From NCBI GenBank assembly GCA_035758825.1, contig DASTWA010000009.1, positions 417-64,416 of the forward strand: a DNA stretch of 64,000 bases, written 5' to 3'. Each line of letters opens with the position of its first letter. The stretch's first letter is position 1. This DNA comes from Candidatus Saccharimonadales bacterium (GTDB taxonomy: Bacteria > Patescibacteriota > Saccharimonadia > Saccharimonadales > UBA4665). Positions 7,289 through 60,855 of the stretch are shown here, in pieces. The notes beneath the pieces are model-generated. The model saw only the letters and a list, made by a program, of their open reading frames with translations. It searched no databases and was not told the origin of the DNA. The position numbers and the translations under genes were made by a program.

Positions 7289-8575
7289 ATGGACGATTAT
7301 AAGGTAAAAGACATCAAGCTCGCTGACTGGGGCCGCAAGGAAATCACCCTCGCCGAAAAAGAAATGCCAGGCCTCATGGCGCTGCGCGAGGAGTACAAGG
7401 ACGGCCAACCGCTCAAGGGAGCCCGCATCGCCGGCTCGCTGCACATGACCATCCAGACCGCAGTACTTATCGAAACCCTTACCGCCTTGGGCGCCGAGGT
7501 ACGCTGGGCATCCTGTAACATCTTTAGCACCCAGGACCAGGCGGCAGCCGCCATAGCTGCTGCCGGCATCCCTGTATTTGCCTGGAAGGGTGAAACCGAA
7601 GAAGAATATTGGGACTGCGTCGAGCAAACCCTCAAATTCAAAGAGGGCGGCCCGAACATGCTGCTCGACGACGGTGGCGACCTGACCGCCTGGGTCCACG
7701 ACAAGCATCCTGAAATGCTCGCTGACATCAAGGGTGTTTCCGAAGAGACTACCACGGGTGTGCACCACCTTTACAAGATGCTGGAATCCGGCAAGCTCAA
7801 GTTGCCCGCCATCAACGTTAACGACTCAGTTACCAAGAGCAAGTTCGACAACAAATATGGCTGCCGCGAATCATTAGTAGACGGCATCAAGCGCGCCACT
7901 GACGTGATGCTCGCTGGTAAGGTTGCCGTAGTTGCTGGTTACGGCGACGTCGGTAAGGGCTGTGCACAGTCTCTGGACACCTACGGCTGCCGCGTACTGG
8001 TAACCGAAATTGACCCGATCTGTGCCCTGCAGGCCATGATGGAAGGCTACGAAGTCGTGACTATGGAAGACGCTGTCAAAGAAGGCGACATCTTTGTTAC
8101 TACTACCGGCTGCCGCGACATTATCACCTTAGAGCACATGAAGAACATGAAGGACACGGCCATCGTCTGCAATATCGGCCACTTTGACATCGAAATCCAG
8201 GTCGAAGCCCTGGGCAACTTCCCTGGTATCAAGAAGGAAGAAGTTAAACCTCAGGTGGACCTCTACACCTTCCCTGACGGACATCGCATCATCTTGCTGG
8301 CCGAAGGTCGCCTGGTGAACTTGGGCTGCGCCACCGGCCACCCATCGTTCGTTATGAGCAATTCATTCTCCAACCAGGTCCTGGCCCAGATTGAACTTTG
8401 GACCAAAGAGTACGAAATCGGCGTCTACTTCCTGCCTAAGGATCTCGACGAAAAGGTCGCCAGGCTGCACGTCGAAGCCCTTGGCGGCAAGATCAGCAAG
8501 CTGACCCCCGAGCAATCCGAATACCTCAGCATCCCTCTGGAAGGTCCATTCAAGCCAGAGCATTACCGCTACTAG
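7289..8575 (+). CDS. ahcY: adenosylhomocysteinase
   Basis: 428 aa with …[25 protein letters not shown]…[21 protein letters not shown]… and the NAD-binding [11 protein letters not shown]. Confidence 0.95.
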
Positions 8576-8665
8576 AATGTGACGGCACTACCCGCTCCAC
8601 ACCTTGAGCGGTCGCACCATCCCGATCAGTCGGCACGAGGCGCCAAAATCGCAATCATCTATAAA

Positions 8666-9499
8666 CTACTGCGAAAGTACGGCAAGCCCACCAAGCCGTG
8701 CTGCAGCCCGGGGACCGTCGCGGTATGCCGTGAATTTCTTTACCAATTCACGTGTAATGCCGCGGGCGCTGCTATTACTGCGGGCAATAAAGGAGTGGAC
8801 AAAATCACCTGGTCGGGTTGGCAGACCGGGTGATAATAGTTCGTAACTTCGGGCAAAACTATACGGCCGCTCAAGTGTATCTTCGGTCCGGTCGATCACC
8901 AAAGACAAAAGCAGATGCGCCAAATACCGGCGGCGGCGGGCGTCATCCGGGCTTTGGCCTGGGTCTATCGCCAAAAAGTCATCAATCACATCCGGCCGGA
9001 TATGATCCACGGGCTGCTGCATCACAAAATCTTTCATAAACTTCTGTACTACAGAAAAGGAGGCCACGCGGACCTCCTGGCTAGTATGCAGGCGCTCGAT
9101 CTGCGGCTGGCGCAGATCAACGACCTTTGGATCACCAAATCGCCTGAACCGTAGCGCTTGCAAAGGGATGTAACCAGCGGCGCATAATACGGTCGCCCTG
9201 AAGCGCTCTGTAGGATTTGCAGGAAGTTTGGGGCCATAATAAGCTGCGTGATATGCGTTATGTGTTGCACGCATCACCAACTGGATGCGTGCATTACGCA
9301 GTGCGTCCCCACCGAACCCATCATGGACTACCTCGCGGGCCGGGTGGAAGACGTGGTTCCAGTCTGCGATAACCTGTCCCGTCCCGTGATCTGCCGCCGG
9401 AGCCTCACCATGCAAAATCGGCACTACCCGCTCATCGGGCACAATCAACAACGGCAGACCGCTTATGGGGTCTGCCGGGGTGTATTCGCCTGTTGTCAT
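8666..9499 (-). CDS. hypothetical protein
   Basis: 277-aa ORF with no signal peptide or TM segment and no family I recognise. Confidence 0.5.
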   Translation of the reverse strand: MTTGEYTPADPISGLPLLIVPDERVVPILHGEAPAADHGTGQVIADWNHVFHPAREVVHDGFGGDALRNARIQLVMRATHNAYHAAYYGPKLPANPTERFRATVLCAAGYIPLQALRFRRFGDPKVVDLRQPQIERLHTSQEVRVASFSVVQKFMKDFVMQQPVDHIRPDVIDDFLAIDPGQSPDDARRRRYLAHLLLSLVIDRTEDTLERPYSFARSYELLSPGLPTRPGDFVHSFIARSNSSARGITRELVKKFTAYRDGPRAAARLGGLAVLSQ

Positions 9500-9614
9500 C
9501 TTTTTGTTCGTTCACCTGCTTACGCTTATGGTAAACAATGGTAGATAGCGAACAATATGAGAAAAATCACATCTTAGATGATTTTGGCCACCGCTCCAAG
9601 AGGAAGCGTTGCAG

Positions 9615-11795
9615 CTAGAGCTGAACTCGTTCCGGGGCAGCCTCGGTATCGCCGGCTCCGCCAAGTACTTCGTCGAGCGAGTTCACCAGCACCTCACGCG
9701 GCCTTGCGCCGTCTGCCGGGCCCACAATACCCTGCTCTTCCATGGTTTCGATTAGACGTGCTGCCCGGCCATAGCCGATACGCAAACGACGCTGCAGCAA
9801 GCTCGTACTTGCCTTTCGGCCTTCGATGACGACCTGTACGGCGTCGCGCCACATATCGTCATCCGCATCGTTGCCGCCGACGTCGGCAACCACACCGCCC
9901 TTGCCATTCAGCTGAACTGGCTGGCTAATGATCTCGTCGTCGTATTCTGGCGGTCGCTGCATTCGAATAAAGTCAGTAACCTTACCCGTTTCCTCATCGC
10001 TAATAAACGCGCCCTGGACACGCTTTGGTTTGGGCATATCGCTCGTTAGGAGCAGCATGTCACCCATACCCAGGAGTTTCTCGGCTCCCATTTGGTCGAT
10101 AATCGTACGGGAGTCGACCTGGCTTGCCACTGTAAAGGCGATGCGGGCTGGCACGTTGGCCTTAATCAGGCCGGTAATGACGTCTACGGACGGACGCTGG
10201 GTAGCAAGCACCAGATGGATACCGGCGGCACGGGCCTTCTGGGCTAACCTAACGATCAGGGCTTCGACGTCACGAGCCGCCATCATCATAAGGTCGGCCA
10301 GCTCATCGATCACGATAACGATGTACGGCATGCCCTCTTCTTTTTTGAGATTGTTGTACTCGGCGATATTCCGCTTGCCGACTTCGGCCATAGTGCGCAA
10401 ACGGCGCTCCATTTCGGCTACCGCCCATTTGAGGGCACTAATACACTTCTCGGGCTCGTTAATAACCGGCGTGAGCAAGTGCGGGATGTCATTATATGGC
10501 GTTAGCTCGACCTGCTTGGGGTCGACCAGAATCAATTTGAGGTCACTAGGACTATTGCGGTACAAGAGGCTCGTCAAAATGGCGTTTATCATTACCGACT
10601 TACCCGAACCGGTCTGGCCAGCCACCAGTAAGTGGGGCATCTTTGCCAAATCAGCGACGACTGGCTTACCAGAAATGTCTTTACCGATGGCGAAGCCCAA
10701 TGGGCCCTTGAGGTCCGACCAATCCCTGGCCTGGACGATTGAACTCAGGCGGACGATAGCAGATTTCACGTTGGGCACTTCGATACCAACAGCACGTTTG
10801 CCGGGGATAGGCGCCTCAATACGGATGGCGTGCGCAGCCAAGTCGAGCGCCAAGTTGTTCTCTAGGGCCGTAATCTTGGTCAGCTTAACGCCGGTTGGCG
10901 GCTTCATGGTGTACTGCGTAACACGAGGGCCTACATTGGCGCCCTCCATCTCAACATCAATATTAAAGTTAGCAAAAGTATCACGGATAGCCTGGGCGTT
11001 GCCGTTCACGTCGCCTGCATCAGCCTTGTCTTGCTTCTGGTCCAAGAGGTTGACGTCCGGGAACTTCCAATTGGGGTCGCTGGCTATGGTAAGTGCTTCC
11101 TGGCTGTCGGTTGGAGCAACTTTCTCGGCCGAGTTCTTTAGGGAACTCAAACGGAGCGGTTTGTCGCGCAGGCCCTGGCTATGTTCAACAGGTACGCCCT
11201 CATTGAGCTTAAAGCCGCTTGACTCAGCCTTGGCCTTTAGCTGACGCAAATCGGTGTCTTCTGACTTTGGCCGGGTAAATAGCTTGATCAGGTTCTTTAG
11301 CACCAGCGGAGAAATGCTGAGCGCAAAGAACACCGACAGAGTAATGAATACAATAAACATGATAGATGCCGGGAACTTGTCGAGCGCGCTGAGGGCCATG
11401 CCACCGAACAGCTGCCCTACTGCCCCGCCGTGACCGTCACTGAACGAGCCGTTTGTTTGCTTGACCGCCGACATCGTAAAAAACCAGCTGGCCGTAAAAA
11501 TTGCGATAGCAATCGTACTCGCCAGCCGGGCGATCGGCATGCGATGGTTCTCGGCGTTAAACTTATAAACACCCCAGTACACAAGGATCGCGGGCAACAA
11601 GTAAGCCGCCCAACCGAATGTAGCATATGCGCCGTTAAACAAAGTCTTGGGCAGTGGGCCACCGGTTCCGAAGCCGCCAAGGAGGATGAAGAGTGCGAGC
11701 ACAAAAAGGAGCACTGCTCCGGTTAGGAGCCAGAATGGGGATAGTTCCCTTGGCTCTGGTGCGGCCTTCTTGCGTGTTTGTTTTCTCTTTGCCAT
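9615..11795 (-). CDS. ftsK: DNA translocase FtsK/SpoIIIE
   Basis: 726 aa with N-terminal TM segments, Walker A GQTGSGKSV, Walker B VIVIDELADLMM and the gamma winged helix LLQRRLRIGYGRAARLIETMEEQGIVG. Confidence 0.95.
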   Translation of the reverse strand: MAKRKQTRKKAAPEPRELSPFWLLTGAVLLFVLALFILLGGFGTGGPLPKTLFNGAYATFGWAAYLLPAILVYWGVYKFNAENHRMPIARLASTIAIAIFTASWFFTMSAVKQTNGSFSDGHGGAVGQLFGGMALSALDKFPASIMFIVFITLSVFFALSISPLVLKNLIKLFTRPKSEDTDLRQLKAKAESSGFKLNEGVPVEHSQGLRDKPLRLSSLKNSAEKVAPTDSQEALTIASDPNWKFPDVNLLDQKQDKADAGDVNGNAQAIRDTFANFNIDVEMEGANVGPRVTQYTMKPPTGVKLTKITALENNLALDLAAHAIRIEAPIPGKRAVGIEVPNVKSAIVRLSSIVQARDWSDLKGPLGFAIGKDISGKPVVADLAKMPHLLVAGQTGSGKSVMINAILTSLLYRNSPSDLKLILVDPKQVELTPYNDIPHLLTPVINEPEKCISALKWAVAEMERRLRTMAEVGKRNIAEYNNLKKEEGMPYIVIVIDELADLMMMAARDVEALIVRLAQKARAAGIHLVLATQRPSVDVITGLIKANVPARIAFTVASQVDSRTIIDQMGAEKLLGMGDMLLLTSDMPKPKRVQGAFISDEETGKVTDFIRMQRPPEYDDEIISQPVQLNGKGGVVADVGGNDADDDMWRDAVQVVIEGRKASTSLLQRRLRIGYGRAARLIETMEEQGIVGPADGARPREVLVNSLDEVLGGAGDTEAAPERVQL

Positions 11796-17688: not shown

Positions 17689-18498
17689 TTATGCCGGCCT
17701 GAGAGCGATGGTAGCCAGTGCCCAGCGGCGAGATTGGGTAATTGTTGCCGCGAAGGGCCCCTGCGACCCAGTGCCTGGCGTGAGCATATTGTAGGTAGCC
17801 AGGGCGGTATTATTTGTGGTGTTAGTGGTACAAGTCGTTAATTCGTCGCTAAAGCCCGTGGGGTCAGTCCAATCCGTAGCACTCAAGGTCGTACCGGTGG
17901 TGGTAGGTACACCGTACACCGCCACGATCATCGCGCCGGTGGTGGTCACTGTAATTGCTGGGGCCGAAGCGGTAGTCGCGGTTACTGTCGCCTCGCCAAA
18001 AACCACCGCGGTGTCTAATGGCGTCGTTTGATTCACGTTCGAGTACGCTCGCAGGTGAGCCGTGTAGTTCTCGGCAGTAGTCGAAGTAGTCGTAACAGTC
18101 GCCCCCGCGTCTCCGGCCTGCGCCAGCCTAGTATAGACAGCAAGAGTATACGCTGCCGCTCCGGCCCGCTGCTCCCCTTGCTTGGTCCAGCCCGAAATGG
18201 CATTAAAAAGCGGGCTGCCGTTAAAACTCTGCGCCACCACCAAGACTAGCATATCCCCCACCTCAACAGTCGCTGGAATGGTAAGGTCCAGGGTATTGAC
18301 CGCATTCGCTTGGTTGGAGGCCGTCGCACGAAGGCCAATAGTCGCAGGAGGCGACCCGGGAAAAATTGTCTGCCAGGCGCTGCCGTCCCAATATTTGATA
18401 TCCGTTGGCACCACCCAGGAGGAGCCATTCCAATAAGAACACTTATCCGCAGTGAGCGGGGTCCAGGAGGAGCCATTCCATATCTGTGGCGTAGCCAT
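17689..18498 (-). CDS. phage-tail-associated-like protein with N-terminal WxGSxW repeats
   Basis: 269 aa with the repeats IWNGSSWTP, YWNGSSWVVP and YWDGSAWQT, followed by a Thr/Ala-rich beta-type domain. There is no signal peptide. Confidence 0.6.
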   Translation of the reverse strand: MATPQIWNGSSWTPLTADKCSYWNGSSWVVPTDIKYWDGSAWQTIFPGSPPATIGLRATASNQANAVNTLDLTIPATVEVGDMLVLVVAQSFNGSPLFNAISGWTKQGEQRAGAAAYTLAVYTRLAQAGDAGATVTTTSTTAENYTAHLRAYSNVNQTTPLDTAVVFGEATVTATTASAPAITVTTTGAMIVAVYGVPTTTGTTLSATDWTDPTGFSDELTTCTTNTTNNTALATYNMLTPGTGSQGPFAATITQSRRWALATIALRPA

Positions 18499-18506
18499 AC
18501 ACTAAC

Positions 18507-19520
18507 CTACGGTTGGATCCACAAGTCGCCCACCCTCGGACTTGAAGGCTGCGAAGCGCCATAGCTTACTTTGCGATCAACATTCGGGGCCGTCACGACA
18601 CCCGTCGGGCTTACCGAGAACAAAGGATTGTTGGATATGTCTGTAGCCTCAATAAGGTTGCCGCTTTGGGTGCCGCTATTGGCCACCTTGACCCTTAGTG
18701 GTACGCGGCTTGCGGCAGAGGCGATTACCCGCAGCTCGCCGAATTCATTAAAGTAACCCGTACGGGACCCGCCATAGTACACGGCCAGGGTGTCTGGCGC
18801 CGAACTCCGGTCACCGCTCGGAATGTCGATGCGCACCGCCTGTGTGACGGCATCACTCATTGTTATTTGGGTAGCCCCGGTTAACGTCTTGTTACCGCTG
18901 ATGGTTTCTGTGCCGGCCAGGTGCACGACGGCATTATCGTTTGCCTTGGCGTTCAAGGCGGTCTGGGTAGCGGAACTAACCGGTTTGTTAGTATCCGACG
19001 TGTTGTCAACATTTGCCAAACCGACGTCTGTCTTGGTGAGTGTCAGATCAGTCTTTAGCTGTGCCGGCGTGCGGTTAGTCCAGGCCCCCGCCTTACGCTG
19101 GAGAACATCGTCGTTTGCGGGGGTAAGCCCGGCAATCGCCGTCAGGTCGGCGTCAGCATCCTGCTTGGAGGCCAACCCCGGCACGGTCGGACTGGCGGCC
19201 GTACCGCCAAGGTCGCCAGCCAGCTGAACAATGCCCTTGTTGGTGGTAGTGGCGTCTGGGGCACCACTTGAGGCTACTGAATCTACATAGGTTTTGTTAG
19301 CGGCATCGGTGCCGTTAGTTGGTGCCGGCACGACTGGCGAGCTGGAAAAGGTCTTCACGCCAGCGACATTCTGGGCGCCGGTAGTCTGAACAAAACCGCT
19401 GAGCGTGCCATCGGTTCGGACCTTGAGGGAACCATCGCTGTTATGCTCCACGTTCAAGAATTCATTGAGGATTATACCCCATTGCCCGCCATCGCTACCA
19501 GGTTGTGGAAGTCGTGCCAT
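18507..19520 (-). CDS. tail-fibre-like protein
   Basis: 337 aa with the N-terminal module MARLPQPGSDGGQWGIILNEFLNVEHNSDGSLK, which is shared with ORF 28620-30134. It also has the TNKGIVQLAGDLGGTAASPTV motif and T/N/A-rich repeats. There is no signal peptide. Confidence 0.65.
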   Translation of the reverse strand: MARLPQPGSDGGQWGIILNEFLNVEHNSDGSLKVRTDGTLSGFVQTTGAQNVAGVKTFSSSPVVPAPTNGTDAANKTYVDSVASSGAPDATTTNKGIVQLAGDLGGTAASPTVPGLASKQDADADLTAIAGLTPANDDVLQRKAGAWTNRTPAQLKTDLTLTKTDVGLANVDNTSDTNKPVSSATQTALNAKANDNAVVHLAGTETISGNKTLTGATQITMSDAVTQAVRIDIPSGDRSSAPDTLAVYYGGSRTGYFNEFGELRVIASAASRVPLRVKVANSGTQSGNLIEATDISNNPLFSVSPTGVVTAPNVDRKVSYGASQPSSPRVGDLWIQP

Positions 19521-28603: not shown

Positions 28604-28619
28604 TGGTGCCTATTATAAG

Positions 28620-30134
28620 CTACATTCGAGCATTCCACACGAAAGTGGCAGTAGTAGCACCAGGATCGGCATCGACGTTGATCGTGAACTGCGTGGTAGT
28701 GATACCGGAAATCCAAAACTTTGCAGCGGTTCCCAAGTTGTTGGTAGGCGTCACCGAAATGTTTTGCAAAGCTGGTGCGCTTTCTAGGCCATGGTTGACA
28801 GCGACCGTTGTTGACCCCGAGGCGACAGTTGCCGTACCTTCATTATCGGTAACCCAACCGATGTTGTTTCGGACAATCGTATTGGTGCCAGCACTCTCGA
28901 TAAGTGACACCGTCGGAGCCACTCCGCCCCATGTCGTACTGTTACCGGTAATGATGTTATCGCCACCGCCACCGGTACTTTCTTCACGGATAAGGCTACG
29001 AGTTTCGCCGGCGCCATCAGAAGTTTCGAGCGAGTTGGCGGTCACCACATTAAAGTGCGTGTTAAATTCCAGATGGATGCCGGAAGCCGCCACCGACCCG
29101 CCGTCGCCCGGCTGGGTAATGACATTGCCGATAACCACACACTTGTTGGCGGCCAAGAAGATATTATCACCAGGGACGCCATCAAATGTGCAGCCAACTA
29201 TTTTCGTCTTAAAGGCATTTTGGACCCGTACGCCAATACAGTTGTTAGAGCCGTTCACGAAATTACAGCTAGTTATAAACTGGAGTCCGGCCTGGTCGTA
29301 CAACATAATTGGCGCCGTACCGATAGGCGCTGATGAACCACCCAGAAATTCAAAATCCGTAGCCAAAAACCAGTTTTCGTCATTAGAAGTAACCCATACC
29401 CCGCCGCCAAAACCTGCGCTGGCACCCGAATTATCAAAAAGACAGCTCACCACACGGTTGTGGTGGCCAAAGCCGCCGCCAGTGGTCGGGCCAAGTTTGA
29501 GGCCCCAATTATACAGGCTGTAAAAATGCAGGCGCTCAAAGCTGCACTGCACTGCCCCGTCGGCTAGAATACCACCGCCGGCAGTCTGGTTCGCGGCGTT
29601 GCCATCAATAGAAAAATCGGCAAATTTGGCGCCAACGATGCCAACGCCAGGGCTTCCGCCAGTAAACTTAATGACGTAATCATTGAGTCCATTCGCAGCC
29701 TTGAGGATAGTTGATTCCCTACCGGAGCCAACTATGGTAATCGGCCCACTAATAGATAGCGGCGTGCCGACAATTGCCGTCCCAGGCGGCAGCATGAGGA
29801 TTTTGTCGGAAGAATTCGCTGCGGTTATGGCGCTCTGGAGCGCTGAAGCATCGTCAGTAGAGCCGTCAAATACAGCCCCGTAATCAGCGGCGTAGAGGAT
29901 CTGGTCGCCAACCTGTATAGCATTATTAATAGTAGTCTGGACCGCGCTTGCCAGATCGGTCAAAGGAATACCCGTCCCGGGCTTGGTGTACTTGGCGTTA
30001 GCCGTCGCTTGCGCGGTATCGATATCGCCACCCCGTTTAAGTGTGCCGTCTGTATTCAACTCCACACTTAAAAACTCGTTGAGGATACTTCCCCAGTCGC
30101 CTGTATCGCCGCCTACAGTTGGAAGTCGTACCAT
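28620..30134 (-). CDS. tailspike-like right-handed beta-helix protein (putative polysaccharide depolymerase)
   Basis: 504 aa. The N-terminal module MVRLPTVGGDTGDWGSILNEFLSVELNTDGTLK is shared with ORF 18507-19520. It also has the YGAVFDGSTDDASALQSAI pectate-lyase-3-type motif and repetitive Gly/Asn-rich beta-helix turns. There is no signal peptide. Confidence 0.7.
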   Translation of the reverse strand: MVRLPTVGGDTGDWGSILNEFLSVELNTDGTLKRGGDIDTAQATANAKYTKPGTGIPLTDLASAVQTTINNAIQVGDQILYAADYGAVFDGSTDDASALQSAITAANSSDKILMLPPGTAIVGTPLSISGPITIVGSGRESTILKAANGLNDYVIKFTGGSPGVGIVGAKFADFSIDGNAANQTAGGGILADGAVQCSFERLHFYSLYNWGLKLGPTTGGGFGHHNRVVSCLFDNSGASAGFGGGVWVTSNDENWFLATDFEFLGGSSAPIGTAPIMLYDQAGLQFITSCNFVNGSNNCIGVRVQNAFKTKIVGCTFDGVPGDNIFLAANKCVVIGNVITQPGDGGSVAASGIHLEFNTHFNVVTANSLETSDGAGETRSLIREESTGGGGDNIITGNSTTWGGVAPTVSLIESAGTNTIVRNNIGWVTDNEGTATVASGSTTVAVNHGLESAPALQNISVTPTNNLGTAAKFWISGITTTQFTINVDADPGATTATFVWNARM

Positions 30135-30163
30135 ATGCTATCCTGCTTGTGCTTAACATCACA

Positions 30164-30193
30164 ATTGTACGGTTAATTGCAGCATCTTGGCAA
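30164..30193 (-). promoter_or_regulatory. sigma70-type promoter of the tailspike-like gene
   Basis: The minus strand reads TTGCCA-18 nt-TACAAT, about 30 nt upstream of the ATG. An AGGA RBS is present. Confidence 0.4.
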
Positions 30194-30281
30194 ATAAGTA
30201 TTTTCGGCTAAATATGCTGTGATTAATATCACTCGCCAACTTATTGAAGATTGGTCAATAAGGTTATAAAGTACAGTTACT

Positions 30282-30851
30282 ATGTCAGATCTCGAACGGC
30301 TCGCTGATCTCGACCGCGACCTGGAGGCCGCGCTCCCTCCCGAATTGCTTGGACGTCTTGCCTTATTTGACGAAGAAGAAATACACACCGACCCCTACCA
30401 GAGGCGTTGCATGGCGTTGGCCGACTTACAGGCGAGACATGTGGCCGAACTTCGCGACCAAGGTACGCTCTGGAAAGCCGAAATGGAAGCAATGAGCTTC
30501 TCTATAGCCAACCCCGAACGACCGCTTCTGCCTTCAAACCTGCCCTACCGGGCCTGTGTTTACCGGCTCAACGGCCAACAGGACGGTGCGCCGGTTGTAA
30601 TTAGCGGCGTCCGGTTTACAACTATCGAAATTGCACCGACTGGTGACGTAATAGAGATGCCCTACGACGTGCCGGTCATTGTAAATGGTAAACCGCGGGT
30701 CGGCTTTGGCAGTCTAGACATCGATGTCATGGACCGCCTGGTCACCGAGCTAGAGGCGCAGCGCCAGGAGCTCAGGCTTGGTCACGACCTGGCTGCGGTC
30801 CTGCAACCACGGCGGCCACGGAAACCTCGTGCCGAGAATCCCGGACAATAG
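30282..30851 (+). CDS. hypothetical protein
   Basis: 189-aa ORF divergent from the tailspike-like gene. It has no SD, no TM segment and no family I recognise. Confidence 0.45.
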   Translation: MSDLERLADLDRDLEAALPPELLGRLALFDEEEIHTDPYQRRCMALADLQARHVAELRDQGTLWKAEMEAMSFSIANPERPLLPSNLPYRACVYRLNGQQDGAPVVISGVRFTTIEIAPTGDVIEMPYDVPVIVNGKPRVGFGSLDIDVMDRLVTELEAQRQELRLGHDLAAVLQPRRPRKPRAENPGQ

Positions 30852-30854
30852 CAC

Positions 30855-31412
30855 TTACATCCATGTCTGGAACGCTGTGAAGAGCTGCGGATAGTAATTG
30901 TTAGCTCGTGGGAAATATTTGTCCTTGGTGTCTTGGCTGCCGACTTCTGCCATCAAAGCCGAAAGCGGCACCCAGGCAAGCTGGGCGATCTTGTGCTGGT
31001 CAAAAGGCAACTGCGCGATGTCAAAATCACGCTGCACCATAAAAACATGACCAAAAACTTTGTGGGTGGTGCCATTCGGCATCGGATTGGCACACTGGAT
31101 ATTAAACAAGTGTTTCAGCTCCTCCGGCGCAACAGTTACCCGGAAGGCGCTTTCAAGCGCCCGTTGGGCAGCGGCAATCGGCTCTTCCCCCGGACGTAAA
31201 TGGCTACCGATTGTCACGTCCCAGACATTAGGGGCAAGCTCCATCCCTGATGAGCGCAGCTGCATTAGCAGCTCTCCTTGAGTGTTCATTACCCACACAT
31301 TAACCACCTCGTGCCAGAGTTCCTGCTTGTGCACCGTTGCTCTATCAAGGACCTGACCCGTCTTATGGCAGTGTTCATCGAGTACTTCGTATTGTTCGGC
31401 TGGTTGGTCCAT
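30855..31412 (-). CDS. NUDIX-family hydrolase
   Basis: 185 aa with a Nudix-box-like segment GSHLRPGEEPIAAAQRALESAFRV. Confidence 0.7.
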   Translation of the reverse strand: MDQPAEQYEVLDEHCHKTGQVLDRATVHKQELWHEVVNVWVMNTQGELLMQLRSSGMELAPNVWDVTIGSHLRPGEEPIAAAQRALESAFRVTVAPEELKHLFNIQCANPMPNGTTHKVFGHVFMVQRDFDIAQLPFDQHKIAQLAWVPLSALMAEVGSQDTKDKYFPRANNYYPQLFTAFQTWM

Positions 31413-31456
31413 AGCTGAATGCTAGCACGGGGCGGACAGGCGGTTCGTAAGAATGC

Positions 31457-31897
31457 TTACAAATCGAGTGTCTGGAGCCCTACCTCTGAATCCTTTTTAC
31501 GTTTTAGTGGCCGAAAGGAGCGATGTACGAATAATTCAATTGTAGCCCCTGCGACGAGATCTTTGATATGCCCGCCGAGCGTCTGGAAGTCTTTGTCGGC
31601 GATGACCCCATGGGCATGGAGCATTATTTTGCCCTCCTCATTGGAAGCCAGGTTGCCTGTAAAGCTGACTAGCTCGCGCAGGCCTTCAAATGTCTGCCAC
31701 CGGTAATCCTGCTTGTCCAACTCGTAGTACCCGAGCGTCACTTCCAATACACCGCCAAGCCCTTCTACCCAGGCACCCTCAATCTTGGCTTCTTGCGCAA
31801 ACTGCTCAATGGCCTCGCTAAGCCGCTCACCCTTCACCAGTTTGATCACATAATTGTATCCGTCAAAGCTATACGTCATATATTCAGTATAGGCCAA
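31457..31897 (-). CDS. PPC (DUF296) domain protein
   Basis: 146 aa. …VIKLVKGERLSEAIEQFAQE…VSFTGNL…HAHGVIAD… is typical of the PPC/PCC fold. Confidence 0.7.
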   Translation of the reverse strand: MAYTEYMTYSFDGYNYVIKLVKGERLSEAIEQFAQEAKIEGAWVEGLGGVLEVTLGYYELDKQDYRWQTFEGLRELVSFTGNLASNEEGKIMLHAHGVIADKDFQTLGGHIKDLVAGATIELFVHRSFRPLKRKKDSEVGLQTLDL

Positions 31898-31904
31898 ATA
31901 AGGA

Positions 31905-32510
31905 TTACTTGTGTGCGATTACCTGAACCCACGTGGTGTTGTTCCGGGTCGCCTTGTCTCCGCTAACCTCAACCTGGCTGTAGCCTACCTTCTTGAGCAA
32001 CTCCTCAATTTGTTGTTCTTGCCAGAAGCAAAAATACCTTGGAGCGCCCAGCTTGCTGTCCTCCCAGGTTTCACCCTCACCCTGTTTGAGTGTAAAAGCA
32101 AACCGGCCACCGTCTTTTAGGGCAGCCAAAACTTTGGCAAGGACCTTCTCGGTCTCCTCACGTGTGAAATGTAGTAAAACTGCGTTAGCGATAACCAAAT
32201 CATACGGACCGCCCAAATCGTCAGTAATCGCATTCAGGACGCGGGCATTAAGCCCTTTCTTTTGCAACAATTCCACGAATGCAGGCGTTGCATCAGTACT
32301 ATTCACCTTGAATCCCTTACCCTGAATATATTCGGTGTCGCGTCCAAAGGCGCTCCCGAACTCCAGGATATCGGCGTCGGCTGGCAAGCCGGCGAGCGCA
32401 GAGTCCATCCACTCTTTTACCACCCCGTCCACTTGCTGTGGAGTTCCGTCTATATATTCCTGCACGTGAGATTGGTAAGCGTCGATTGTTTGCTGGTTTG
32501 AATCATTCAT
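31905..32510 (-). CDS. class I SAM-dependent methyltransferase
   Basis: 201 aa with motif I ILEFGSAFGRD and post-I/II motifs. Confidence 0.8.
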   Translation of the reverse strand: MNDSNQQTIDAYQSHVQEYIDGTPQQVDGVVKEWMDSALAGLPADADILEFGSAFGRDTEYIQGKGFKVNSTDATPAFVELLQKKGLNARVLNAITDDLGGPYDLVIANAVLLHFTREETEKVLAKVLAALKDGGRFAFTLKQGEGETWEDSKLGAPRYFCFWQEQQIEELLKKVGYSQVEVSGDKATRNNTTWVQVIAHK

Positions 32511-32525
32511 AGGTATGAGTATACC

Positions 32526-58606: not shown

Positions 58607-59194
58607 ATGCTATCGCACGTGAAACTTGCACGTGTTAATACTTTATTGCTAGCCGCAATCTTAGCAATTAATGGCTATATCGTATTGGTTCCTGTCATAC
58701 CCAAGATTATTTTCTGGACACAGCAACACGACACACGGCGCATCCAAAGACTGGAGGCGGCCATTACCCATCCCCCCATAAAGGAAGAACGACCCCGGGA
58801 CAACCGGCTGGTCATACCCACTATGGTTTTTGACGAGTCCATCCACGAAGGCCATAGCGAGCGTACCCTCCGGCAAGGTCTTTGGCGCCGCCCCCAAACA
58901 AGCACGCCAGACCAAGGGGGCAACACCGTCCTCGCCGGGCACCGTTTAACCTACAGCAACCCGCGCGGAACGTTATACAATCTCGATAAAGTCCGCGTTG
59001 GCGACGATATAGCACTGTGGTGGGAGGGCAAGCGATACCACTACCAAGTAAGCGAATCCAGAGTAGTAGCCGCGAGCGAAACGAGCGTCGAAGAGCCTAC
59101 CAAAAACAGCCGGCTGACAATTTACACCTGTACGCCCCTATGGATGCCAAAAGACAGGCTGGTCGTAATTGCAGAGCTAAAGGACATACAATGA
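58607..59194 (+). CDS. sortase
   Basis: 195 aa with an N-terminal TM anchor, the catalytic His in NTVLAGHR, the TLxTC-type LTIYTCTP and a downstream Arg (KDRLVV). Confidence 0.8.
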   Translation: MLSHVKLARVNTLLLAAILAINGYIVLVPVIPKIIFWTQQHDTRRIQRLEAAITHPPIKEERPRDNRLVIPTMVFDESIHEGHSERTLRQGLWRRPQTSTPDQGGNTVLAGHRLTYSNPRGTLYNLDKVRVGDDIALWWEGKRYHYQVSESRVVAASETSVEEPTKNSRLTIYTCTPLWMPKDRLVVIAELKDIQ

Positions 59195-59681: not shown

Positions 59682-59897
59682 ATGTTTAGCCAATTTGGGT
59701 TCCTAAACCTCGGCGCACCAGAGCTTTTACTTATCTTTCTAATCGTGCTTTTGCTCTTCGGTGGCAAGAAAATCCCTGAGCTGGCACGTAGTGCAGGATC
59801 ATCAGTCCGCGAACTCCGGAAAGGTTTGAGTGAAGGTGGCAATGAAAAGAACCAAAAGCAAACCAACGAGAAGGCACGCTCAGACTCAGCCTCATAA
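59682..59897 (+). CDS. tatA: twin-arginine translocase subunit TatA/E
   Basis: 71 aa. The N-terminus is MFSQFGFLNLGAPELLLIFLIVLLLFGGKKIPELARSAG, followed by an amphipathic helix. Confidence 0.9.
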   Translation: MFSQFGFLNLGAPELLLIFLIVLLLFGGKKIPELARSAGSSVRELRKGLSEGGNEKNQKQTNEKARSDSAS

Positions 59898-60855
59898 GCA
59901 AGAGCCGACTAAACTTCCCTTTATTGCACACGTGTACGAACTGCGTAAACGGCTATTTTATATAGCCGTTTCAGTTGGTTTATTCGGTATTAGCGCTGCA
60001 GGCGTTCAGACGCAGCTCACCGATCTCCTGTTAAAACCAGCAAATGGCCAGCAGTTCATCTACACGTCACCGGGTGGTGGGTTTGATTTTGTCTTTAAGC
60101 TGTGCCTTTACACTGGCATTGCAATGAGCATCCCGGTCATTGTGTATCAGCTTGTCCGCTATCTTGACCCCCTGGTCAAAAAGCAGACAATGCATTTTAT
60201 CGGCTGGCTGAGCATCTGGTCGGGCATCATGGCGGGAGCAGGCATTATCTTTGCTTATTACGTTGGCCTGCCTGCAGCGCTCAACTTCTTATTGCATGGC
60301 TTTTCGAGCGAACAGATCAAGGCGCTCATAAACATCCAATCATACCTGTCGTTTGTTATGATCTATTTGCTTGGCTCTGCTCTGCTCTTCCAGATCCCGC
60401 TCATAATGATCTTCATTAACAAAATAAAACCATTGCAACCCAAAAAGCTCATGAAGCTCCAAAAATGGGTGTTTTTGATTGCCTTTATCCTGGGGGCAAT
60501 AATCAGTCCTTCGCCGGATATCCGTAACCAGGCGCTCCTTAGCGGCCCGATTATCATTATGTACGAATTCAGCGTGGGCCTTATCTGGTCCATAAACCGC
60601 AGACAGCGGAAGCCCAAAAAAGTTGTCGCCCTGCTCCAAAAAGATGCCGAGATTCAAGCCGAACGGCTGGCAAAATTCCAGCAGGCACAACAAATCTGGC
60701 AACAGGCCCTGCAAACCCAACCGGCACACAACAAACCAGCAGCCGCGACGACCATTCGGCGTGCTCCACTATCTGTACGTCCCACCGGCCGCCCCAATAA
60801 TTATTTACGCGACTTTAGCCGGCAGCCTCAACGACGATTCGTAAACCCCGCGTAA
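59842..60855 (+). CDS. tatC: twin-arginine translocase subunit TatC
   Basis: The start is set at ATG 59842, preceded by GAAGGTGG. The protein has six TM segments and HVYELRKRL near the N-terminus. The C-terminal ~75 aa are a Gln/Arg/Pro-rich extension. Confidence 0.9.
   Translation: MKRTKSKPTRRHAQTQPHKQEPTKLPFIAHVYELRKRLFYIAVSVGLFGISAAGVQTQLTDLLLKPANGQQFIYTSPGGGFDFVFKLCLYTGIAMSIPVIVYQLVRYLDPLVKKQTMHFIGWLSIWSGIMAGAGIIFAYYVGLPAALNFLLHGFSSEQIKALINIQSYLSFVMIYLLGSALLFQIPLIMIFINKIKPLQPKKLMKLQKWVFLIAFILGAIISPSPDIRNQALLSGPIIIMYEFSVGLIWSINRRQRKPKKVVALLQKDAEIQAERLAKFQQAQQIWQQALQTQPAHNKPAAATTIRRAPLSVRPTGRPNNYLRDFSRQPQRRFVNPA

Follow-up and report, generated by a model that had tools for sequence, protein, structure and literature searches.

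A cell-owned family of phage receptor-binding proteins in a Saccharibacterium that comes and goes with TatAC and a mini-protein the size of a signal peptide

We analysed a stretch of 64,000 nucleotides (nt; the window) from the genome of a Saccharibacterium (1.2 Mb in 15 contigs, 96.6% complete, with relatives named Candidatus Saccharimonadales), starting from a gene in it that encodes a tailspike-like protein of 504 amino acids (aa; Table 1). This protein carries an N-terminal module of 33 residues in common with seven other proteins of the same genome. The module proteins are a cell-owned family of phage receptor-binding proteins, which is gained and lost along with the twin-arginine translocation (Tat) genes tatA and tatC (TatAC) and with a gene for a mini-protein. 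In the reading that we favour, and which we consider evenly poised between right and wrong, they would be phage-derived surface fibres that are exported in folded form through Tat and aimed at glycans of actinobacterial hosts.

The protein begins with MVRLPTVGGDTGDWGSILNEFLSVELNTDGTLK. An earlier note, made from the letters of this DNA, had counted 22 identities in the first 33 positions with the N-terminus of a tail-fibre-like protein encoded elsewhere in the window, and BLASTP recovers exactly this segment without gaps (E 3e-11), the remainder of both proteins being unalignable. The similarity of the DNA at the two starts is also real, with ATGGTACGACTTCCA at one and ATGGCACGACTTCCA at the other (tggaagtcgtRccat on the plus strand). 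When a hidden Markov model (HMM) of the module was run against all six-frame open reading frames (ORFs) of the genome, the search that the note had proposed, exactly eight ORFs were found with E between 4e-22 and 2e-19, while the next best match had E 2.1; the sharing is therefore far beyond chance. In all eight carriers the module starts at residue 1 and the likeness stops sharply at K33, with R3, L4, P5, G8, D10, W14, L18, N19, L22, D29, G30 and K33 invariant among the paralogues.

Behind this constant handle the distal domains differ, as the same note had expected. Two carriers have pectate-lyase-like helices (504 and 680 aa), one is HylP hyaluronidase-like (589 aa, PF07212, 1.5e-32), the tail-fibre-like paralogue of 337 aa matches BppL_N and DUF5907 in Pfam and minor-tail or fibre families in PHROGs, and four (119, 179, 244 and 561 aa) belong to no family. 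Among 41 relatives, 27 carry the module, at 1 to 16 copies per genome. Sequence searches of the PDB with the module gave chance matches only, and a homologue search limited to residues 1-40 returned five proteins and was uninformative. A profile search of 1.84 billion proteins, on the other hand, yielded 6479 clusters (50% identity), 4309 of them with E <= 1e-10, nearly all matching from residue 1 in proteins of 37 to 2474 aa. In one such protein (P0123) three tandem copies of the module stand ahead of an unannotated C-terminal body, and another (P0127) combines a Sec-type signal peptide with three module-like repeats in its interior, a GKLKTDL...GIGT element coming after each of them.

The fold of the 504-aa protein was addressed with Pfam, PHROGs and an AlphaFold2 model of the single chain built with 57 homologues. 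Pfam reports Pect-lyase_RHGA_epim (PF12708) at residues 83-155 (45.8 bits, cut-off 27), the PHROGs matches are tail-spike families, and the model, with a mean predicted local distance difference test (pLDDT) score of 88.8, predicts a right-handed parallel beta-helix followed by a small beta-sandwich, the terminal beta-domain that had been proposed; residues 1-80 are modelled as three helices at pLDDT 52-72. The suggested Foldseek comparison also upheld the beta-helix: its top structures are AlgE4 and the tailspikes of Sf6, Dettilon, LKA1 and HK620 (probability 1.0), and among viral models it matches pectate-lyase-type tail proteins. The label 'GH28-like', in contrast, had to be dropped. Membership in GH28 was rejected as PF00295 has no match at E <= 0.1, and the name 'GH28-related' on some homologues is an automatic label of the source. 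Twelve helix positions (R201, H224, H225, N226, D234, D252, E253, N254, W255, D260, E262 and D318) are invariant in the 57 homologues, and depolymerase activity is plausible because so many of the invariant residues are Asp, Glu or His. In our reading, the head would be a glycan-binding, probably glycan-cutting, beta-helix with a small beta-sandwich, mounted on a constant handle.

Compared with phage tailspikes of the pectin-lyase fold (Sf6, Dettilon gp208, LKA1 gp49, HK620, and GVE2 ORF18, PDB 7chu), the protein has the same right-handed beta-helix and, like them, joins a variable body to an N-terminal adaptor that is conserved. Foldseek E-values against tailspikes go down to 1e-10 at sequence identities of only 11-17%, and a sequence profile matches Sf6 and 7chu. 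There are also differences: the 33-aa handle is unlike the solved head- or tail-binding domains and has no PDB match, and the gene stands on a cell chromosome with no virion genes.

The relationship of the module to phages was examined in viral contigs of IMG/VR. In L009, L010 and L011 the module gene comes directly after the tape-measure gene (an assignment confirmed by PHROGs for L009 and L011), and in L032 two small ORFs separate it from a preceding 1148-aa ORF whose size and position alone make it tape-measure-like. Further viral contigs, of 41 to 69% guanine plus cytosine (GC), have it in tail regions. Since the module heads tail proteins beside the tape-measure gene, it is a true handle of phage receptor-binding proteins, which is the architecture that the earlier note had read into the window. 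One viral contig (L035, GC 57%) has two module genes in tandem at 7882-10630, encoding 324 and 551 aa; several proteins with the handle can thus occur in a phage as well.

Among isolated phages, tblastn found the module in the Streptomyces phages Alone3, LuckySocke, GiJojo, pSt2308 and BRock, of 110-116 kb. Alone3 gp41 (WPH58310.1) is 51% identical to the 504-aa protein over 457 residues (E 8e-126), a match that spans the module, the KYTKP..GIP..DL...VQ element and the whole helix, and its homologues in LuckySocke, GiJojo and pSt2308 likewise have module and helix in common with the cellular protein. BRock gp186 combines the module with a domain 31-32% identical to the C-terminal part of paralogue C9b. 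The second common element, KYTKPGTGIPLTDLASAVQTT, recurs in the paralogue C9:19366, in Alone3 gp41 and in BRock gp186. Unlike the Saccharibacterium, with its eight copies and the C-terminal beta-sandwich on the 504-aa protein, these phages have one module copy each and homologues without the sandwich, encoded in a tRNA-array region ahead of a peptidase gene and not beside Tat genes; they are annotated as hypothetical or collagen-repeat proteins only. In a tree of the heads the phage sequences form one long branch (1.25) among Saccharibacteria sequences; the tree is unrooted, and rooting with paralogue C2 and the viral L011 protein failed, the branches having about nine changes per site.

A few features of these phage loci may be recorded here. 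The Alone3 homologue (L001, 9001-11613) is located within the tRNA array, a long way from the annotated tail genes; after it come a gene for a 170-aa 'peptidase' and one of the TerD family. In BRock (L002, KX925554.1) the annotated start of gp186 (8791-9738) overlaps tRNA-Lys(ttt); the module begins with a Met at L002:9001, the likely true start. BRock gp186, named 'collagen triple helix repeat-containing protein', shows no obvious collagen repeats. The BRock genome has 52.3% GC (PMC7453282), close to the value of this Saccharibacterium (about 53%).

The gene is nevertheless cellular. Pfam searches for six hallmark families (HK97 capsid, portal, terminase, tape-measure, sheath and Dit) found none in the 96.6%-complete genome, and tblastn with all ORFs of nine phage loci returned the fibres alone, with no homologue of their phage neighbours; on these grounds a prophage or tailocin was rejected. 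The tailspike-like gene has APH, NUDIX, polA and mutM, all housekeeping genes, as its neighbours, in place of the virion tail module that surrounds phage tailspikes. All eight module genes lie outside prophages, scattered over five contigs among housekeeping or envelope genes, so the module is not limited to complete prophages. The genes might still be parts of an unrecognised phage-like particle (a tailocin, gene transfer agent or satellite), or else a reserve of fibres that a resident phage could use, as every domain is phage-tail-like and the module heads true tail genes in viral contigs. We regard this as very unlikely given the absent hallmark families, the tblastn result and the scatter of the genes, and because a link to Tat and to a sortase-adjacent gene, described below, would be unexpected for particle parts.

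The 504-aa gene is also an accessory insertion. Its head (residues 80-504) is absent from all nine congeners and from 31 other relatives, apart from a weak partial match of 33% in G003, and recurs in only one other of 151 genomes of the class, at 35% identity. When the DNA is compared among members of the genus, mutM, a membrane protein gene, APH ... polA form a conserved backbone, which is variable between APH and polA. The variable stretch (28604-32525 of the window) is empty in G008, where APH abuts polA, and is filled differently in G002, G003 and G005; here it holds the tailspike-like gene, an orphan ORF of 189 aa without family (30282-30851) and NUDIX, PCC-domain and methyltransferase genes. 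The heads are thus exchanged over time, while the handle stays the same.

Insertion in a variable region that the congeners lack might also be expected of a decaying remnant of phage DNA without function, a reading to which we give almost no weight. The frame is intact and is preceded by the promoter-like TTGCCA-18-TACAAT that had been claimed (a consensus match); metagenomes hold more than 280 full-length relatives (52-85% identity, contigs up to 1.2 Mb) with 44 invariant columns; and the family is kept at 1-16 copies in many genomes. One of these full-length relatives has NUDIX, methyltransferase, ClpB and MurT genes as neighbours.

The protein has no signal peptide, as had been stated: its N-terminus is polar, with a single Arg and without a hydrophobic region, and a stop codon four in-frame codons upstream of the ATG leaves no room for one. 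Tat signals hidden upstream of the fibre genes were considered and rejected, as the eight genes have only 4-33 in-frame codons upstream and none of these with RR. The earlier note had also found no docking partner in the window. Candidates do exist there, at 58.6-61.1 kb, where a sortase gene is followed by the gene of a YG-motif protein (yg102), by tatA and tatC and by the gene of a 64-aa mini-protein (small64).

The presence of TatC and of the module coincide almost perfectly. Among the 41 relatives, 26 have both, none has TatC only, 14 have neither, and the single genome with the module only (G021) is 88% complete. At the level of the class we sampled 151 genomes of at least 85% completeness, which are related and therefore not statistically independent: 47 have both, two TatC only, one the module only and 101 neither. 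At least seven families in this sample are polymorphic, with TatC and module tallies equal or off by one, and genome size does not separate positive from negative genomes. The sortase, taken as a control, is present in 41/41 relatives. The association is also physical. In 25/47 genomes tatC has a module gene at a distance of at most 5 kb, and in 17 at most 1.5 kb, against a chance estimate of about 3%, and operons of tatA, tatC, mini-gene and module gene are found in three genera.

The mini-protein follows the same pattern. Its sequence is MQKISDIMQKEMTRKEFLATLGFGVATIFGFSSLLQMLGKQNPLQQSSQYGYGGGTYGGHKPRS, with a Tat-signal-like part (EMTRKEFL and then a hydrophobic stretch) and the tail motif YGYGGGTYGG; Pfam finds no family in it or in yg102. 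Homologues adjoin tatC in 14/16 relatives examined, with R14, F17, G22, G30, G53, Y57 and G58 invariant and the general pattern [ST]-R-[KR]-x-F-L, hydrophobic stretch, G-Y-G-x-S-x-Y-G-G tail. A profile search detects the mini-ORF in 46/151 class genomes, which are those with TatC and the module, and in 23 cases (19 genomes) a mini-gene is followed on its own strand by a module gene that starts at most 500 nt downstream. In the present genome a second mini-protein, of 79 aa, has its stop codon overlapping the ATG of the module gene C7:42892 (TAATG), and a genome-wide scan for Tat-like N-termini found T-R-K-x-F-L with a hydrophobic region in these two mini-proteins only. We regard small64 as the candidate carrier or anchor for the module. 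The neighbouring yg102 starts with AYSEGAYGEGNY and continues with a Thr/Gly linker, L-T-D-T-G, a transmembrane helix and RIWRRK, a C-terminus resembling a sortase sorting signal; a signal peptide is absent.

A possible socket for the handle emerged from the proteins encoded beside module genes. In four independent phage lineages such a protein has a motif of period five at or near its N-terminus (SLFGEGLFGVGLFG in L009, SLYGSGPYGLGLYG in L011, DYGLQIYGKGVYGEYLYGG in L006 and GYGQGVYGGGAYG in L032), which we refer to as the YG motif. With the strict criterion [FY]G-x3-[FY]G-x3-[FY][GSDN] applied to six-frame segments, there are five occurrences in 2500 segments of 11 phage loci, four of them no more than two genes from a module gene and the fifth, in L037, four genes distant, as against four in 22,640 segments of this genome. 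One of the genomic occurrences is the mature N-terminus of a Sec-secreted protein encoded directly upstream of the C7 pair of mini-gene and module gene. The mini-protein tail and the N-terminus of yg102 show a two-repeat form. As a socket for the handle the YG motif is suggestive, although these counts do not amount to proof.

Mechanistically, the handle would plug, in phages, into the neighbouring tail protein bearing the short ([F/Y]G-x3)n motif. In the Saccharibacterium, the fibres would fold in the cytoplasm as phage fibres do and would then bind the YG tail of the 64-aa protein, itself little more than a Tat signal peptide, so that the complex could leave in folded form through TatAC by 'hitch-hiking'. 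Outside, the uncleaved signal anchor and/or the sortase-linked YG protein would retain the fibres on the surface, where the heads would recognise glycans in the wall of the actinobacterial host and, in the present case, probably degrade them. Hitch-hiking would be the most economical mechanism, given that folding and trimerisation of phage fibres are cytoplasmic and that folded proteins are what Tat transports. Cases are known from Escherichia coli, hydrogenase-2 (HybO/HybC) and DmsA/DmsB, in which a folded partner without a signal rides on a signal-bearing subunit. The known carriers are full-size redox subunits, whereas the putative carrier here has 64 aa, in essence a signal peptide plus a 10-residue motif, and would, unlike those pairs, serve many cargoes. 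More specifically, handle and YG motif may represent a plug-and-socket of phage tails rewired to TatAC export, pinning many folded fibres on the surface; we hold this only tentatively, as somewhat less probable than its opposite.

As for the target, cultivated Saccharibacteria grow on Actinobacteria (PMC10633639), and from these hosts together with the Streptomyces-phage-like head we infer an actinobacterial wall glycan. The Streptomyces-phage relative itself would point to a Streptomyces-like host.

Several observations weigh against the proposed export of folded fibres. The 504-aa fibre itself has no twin-arginine signal, and its gene has no mini-gene of its own and is 30 kb from tatC. The mini-proteins mostly have R-K, with a true R-R in 2/14, and the pairing of TatC and module is broken in 3/151 genomes. 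A trimer would have about 160 kDa, near the upper end of the sizes known for proteins carried by Tat. That the handle binds the YG motif we infer from gene order alone, and a looser criterion for the motif (at least four [FYW]G per 24 residues) gave 10 occurrences against 3-6 in shuffles and missed the Tat-locus proteins. The module also occurs in tandem and inside a protein with a Sec signal, and is therefore a small autonomous domain and not only an export handle. Finally, no alignment of the invariant Asp, Glu and His residues of the helix to a known active site was obtained.

In another reading, docking would take place outside the cell, with Tat exporting the mini-proteins only, as membrane sockets, and the fibres leaving by lysis, vesicles or type IV secretion and then docking on the YG tails or on a pilus protein. 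The co-occurrence and the gene pairing would be explained equally well, the Sec-secreted protein with its mature N-terminal YG motif directly upstream of a module gene would fit, and a preprint describes a tail-fibre-like gene that is regularly found beside the Pam pilus operon of candidate phyla radiation (CPR) bacteria (PMC13278184). However, no alternative export signal is visible on the fibres, and release by lysis would presumably be costly for an obligate epibiont. The translational coupling of mini-gene and module gene, moreover, suggests that assembly is cytoplasmic. We consider docking outside distinctly unlikely.

Alternatively, the protein might be exported, possibly by Tat, and trim or modify the surface or extracellular polysaccharide of the cell itself, with no recognition of a host. 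A precedent is WceF of Pantoea stewartii, a bacterial tailspike-like trimer with a Tat signal that is encoded in an exopolysaccharide cluster (PMC7949094), and which demonstrates that a tailspike-like trimer can be a Tat substrate; WceF has its own cleavable twin-arginine signal and acts on stewartan, the exopolysaccharide of its own cell, while the putative signal here is on a separate mini-protein. Within the genome, the C2 paralogue (C2:22969-25011, minus strand, 680 aa, pectate-lyase-like head, PF12708) lies among genes that by eye resemble those of a flippase, of a membrane protein of 757 aa and of glycosyltransferases, so that a role in own polysaccharide is possible for this copy, and an island at 43-53 kb of contig C7 abuts polysaccharide-synthesis genes. 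The 504-aa gene, in contrast, has no glycan-synthesis neighbours, and its head, accessory and absent from nine congeners, fits a variable external target better than a constant polymer of the cell. Its closest relative comes from Streptomyces-attacking phages, and eight different heads in 1.2 Mb are many for the upkeep of a single coat. Self-directed remodelling thus appears unlikely for the 504-aa protein.

For surface fibres directed at a host, an analogy (not homology) is found in the predator Bdellovibrio bacteriovorus, whose mosaic adhesive trimer (MAT) fibres form a family of 21 phage-fibre-like genes (Caulton et al. 2024, PMC10769870) and demonstrate that a bacterial predator can own a mosaic fibre family. 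Like the module proteins, MAT fibres have a constant end with an unknown partner and variable tips, directed at prey. They differ in that a Sec signal peptide precedes their constant domain, which is beta-rich and has about 130 aa, where the module proteins have no signal, 33 aa and a link to Tat, and no sequence relationship was found between the two. Three known kinds of system thus meet here: phage receptor-binding proteins, fibre families owned by a predator, and Tat hitch-hiking. The literature searched mentions, in passing only, a 'tail fibre-like protein' next to the CPR Pam pilus operon (PMC13278184), and yielded nothing on the module, its phage origin or its link to Tat; a term search of the Cell 2023 transposon-sequencing paper on Saccharibacteria gave no mention of such proteins.

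Little is known of the way in which CPR epibionts, Saccharibacteria among them, select their hosts and breach them, and so far only pili and some adhesins offer a handle on the question. If the proposal is right, a chromosomal and rapidly changing repertoire of phage receptor-binding proteins would be a molecular basis of host range, and the epibiont would obtain exchangeable, horizontally renewable tools for recognition and wall degradation from the phages of its host. The hosts of uncultured epibionts could then be predicted by matching heads to phages of known hosts, and the repertoire would be a source of glycan-specific enzymes. That the family is coupled almost perfectly both to TatAC and to a protein the size of a signal peptide suggests an undescribed export of folded trimers in which one tiny carrier serves many cargoes. 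Such an export would also explain the patchy retention of Tat in minimal genomes.

Table 1. Features of the window, with the evidence for each.
Feature	Position	Strand	Evidence or remark
269-aa gene directly downstream of the 337-aa paralogue	17689..18498	-	weak PHROG 3329 match
Tail-fibre-like paralogue, 337 aa	18507..19520	-	BLASTP
Module of the 337-aa paralogue, residues 1-33	19422..19520	-	BLASTP
Tailspike-like gene, 504-aa product (handle, beta-helix, C-terminal beta-sandwich)	28620..30134	-	ORF list, PF12708, PHROGs, AlphaFold2, Foldseek
C-terminal beta-sandwich, residues 430-504 (predicted strands 430-503)	28623..28847	-	AlphaFold2 and alignment
Predicted right-handed parallel beta-helix, about residues 80-425	28860..29897	-	AlphaFold2, pLDDT mostly >90
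Second common element, residues 48-68	29931..29993	-	alignments and translations
33-aa N-terminal module, residues 1-33	30036..30134	-	BLASTP, HMM, paralogue alignment
Promoter-like site TTGCCA-18-TACAAT	30164..30193	-	consensus match only
Sortase, beside yg102 and the Tat genes	58607..59194	+	PF04203, 2.4e-23
yg102, 102 aa	59292..59600	-	read from the sequence; kept beside Tat genes in 7/16 relatives
tatA	59682..59897	+	PF02416, 6.3e-17
tatC	59830..60855	+	PF00902, 3.3e-47
small64, mini-protein of 64 aa	60949..61143	+	beside tatC

Downstream of the tailspike-like gene, the kinase gene that had been assigned to the APH family belongs there (PF01636, 1.6e-24).

Outside the window, the island of surface genes on contig C7 (39515-52886) opens with four signal-peptide or Ig-like proteins of 203, 356, 308 and 206 aa, the 308-aa one with Big_6 and Glucodextran_B domains and a C-terminal transmembrane helix; these four may correspond to the Pam pilus operon of PMC13278184. 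The mini Tat-signal ORF comes next, with the module protein C7a (561 aa), a 632-aa ORF and an 867-aa Kelch propeller protein, and then a membrane protein that is CPBP-like by eye (EEFYFRG motif) and the module protein C7b (119 aa). A 232-aa ORF and a 474-aa LamG protein close the island.

The 269-aa protein encoded next to the 337-aa paralogue has WNGSSW/WNGSAW/WDGSAW repeats at its N-terminus, and the Kelch protein (C7:46487-49090) ends in three such repeats (WNGSAW/WDGSAW); its gene likewise lies downstream of a module gene. These repeats may be a second common docking element, carried by 'partner' proteins.

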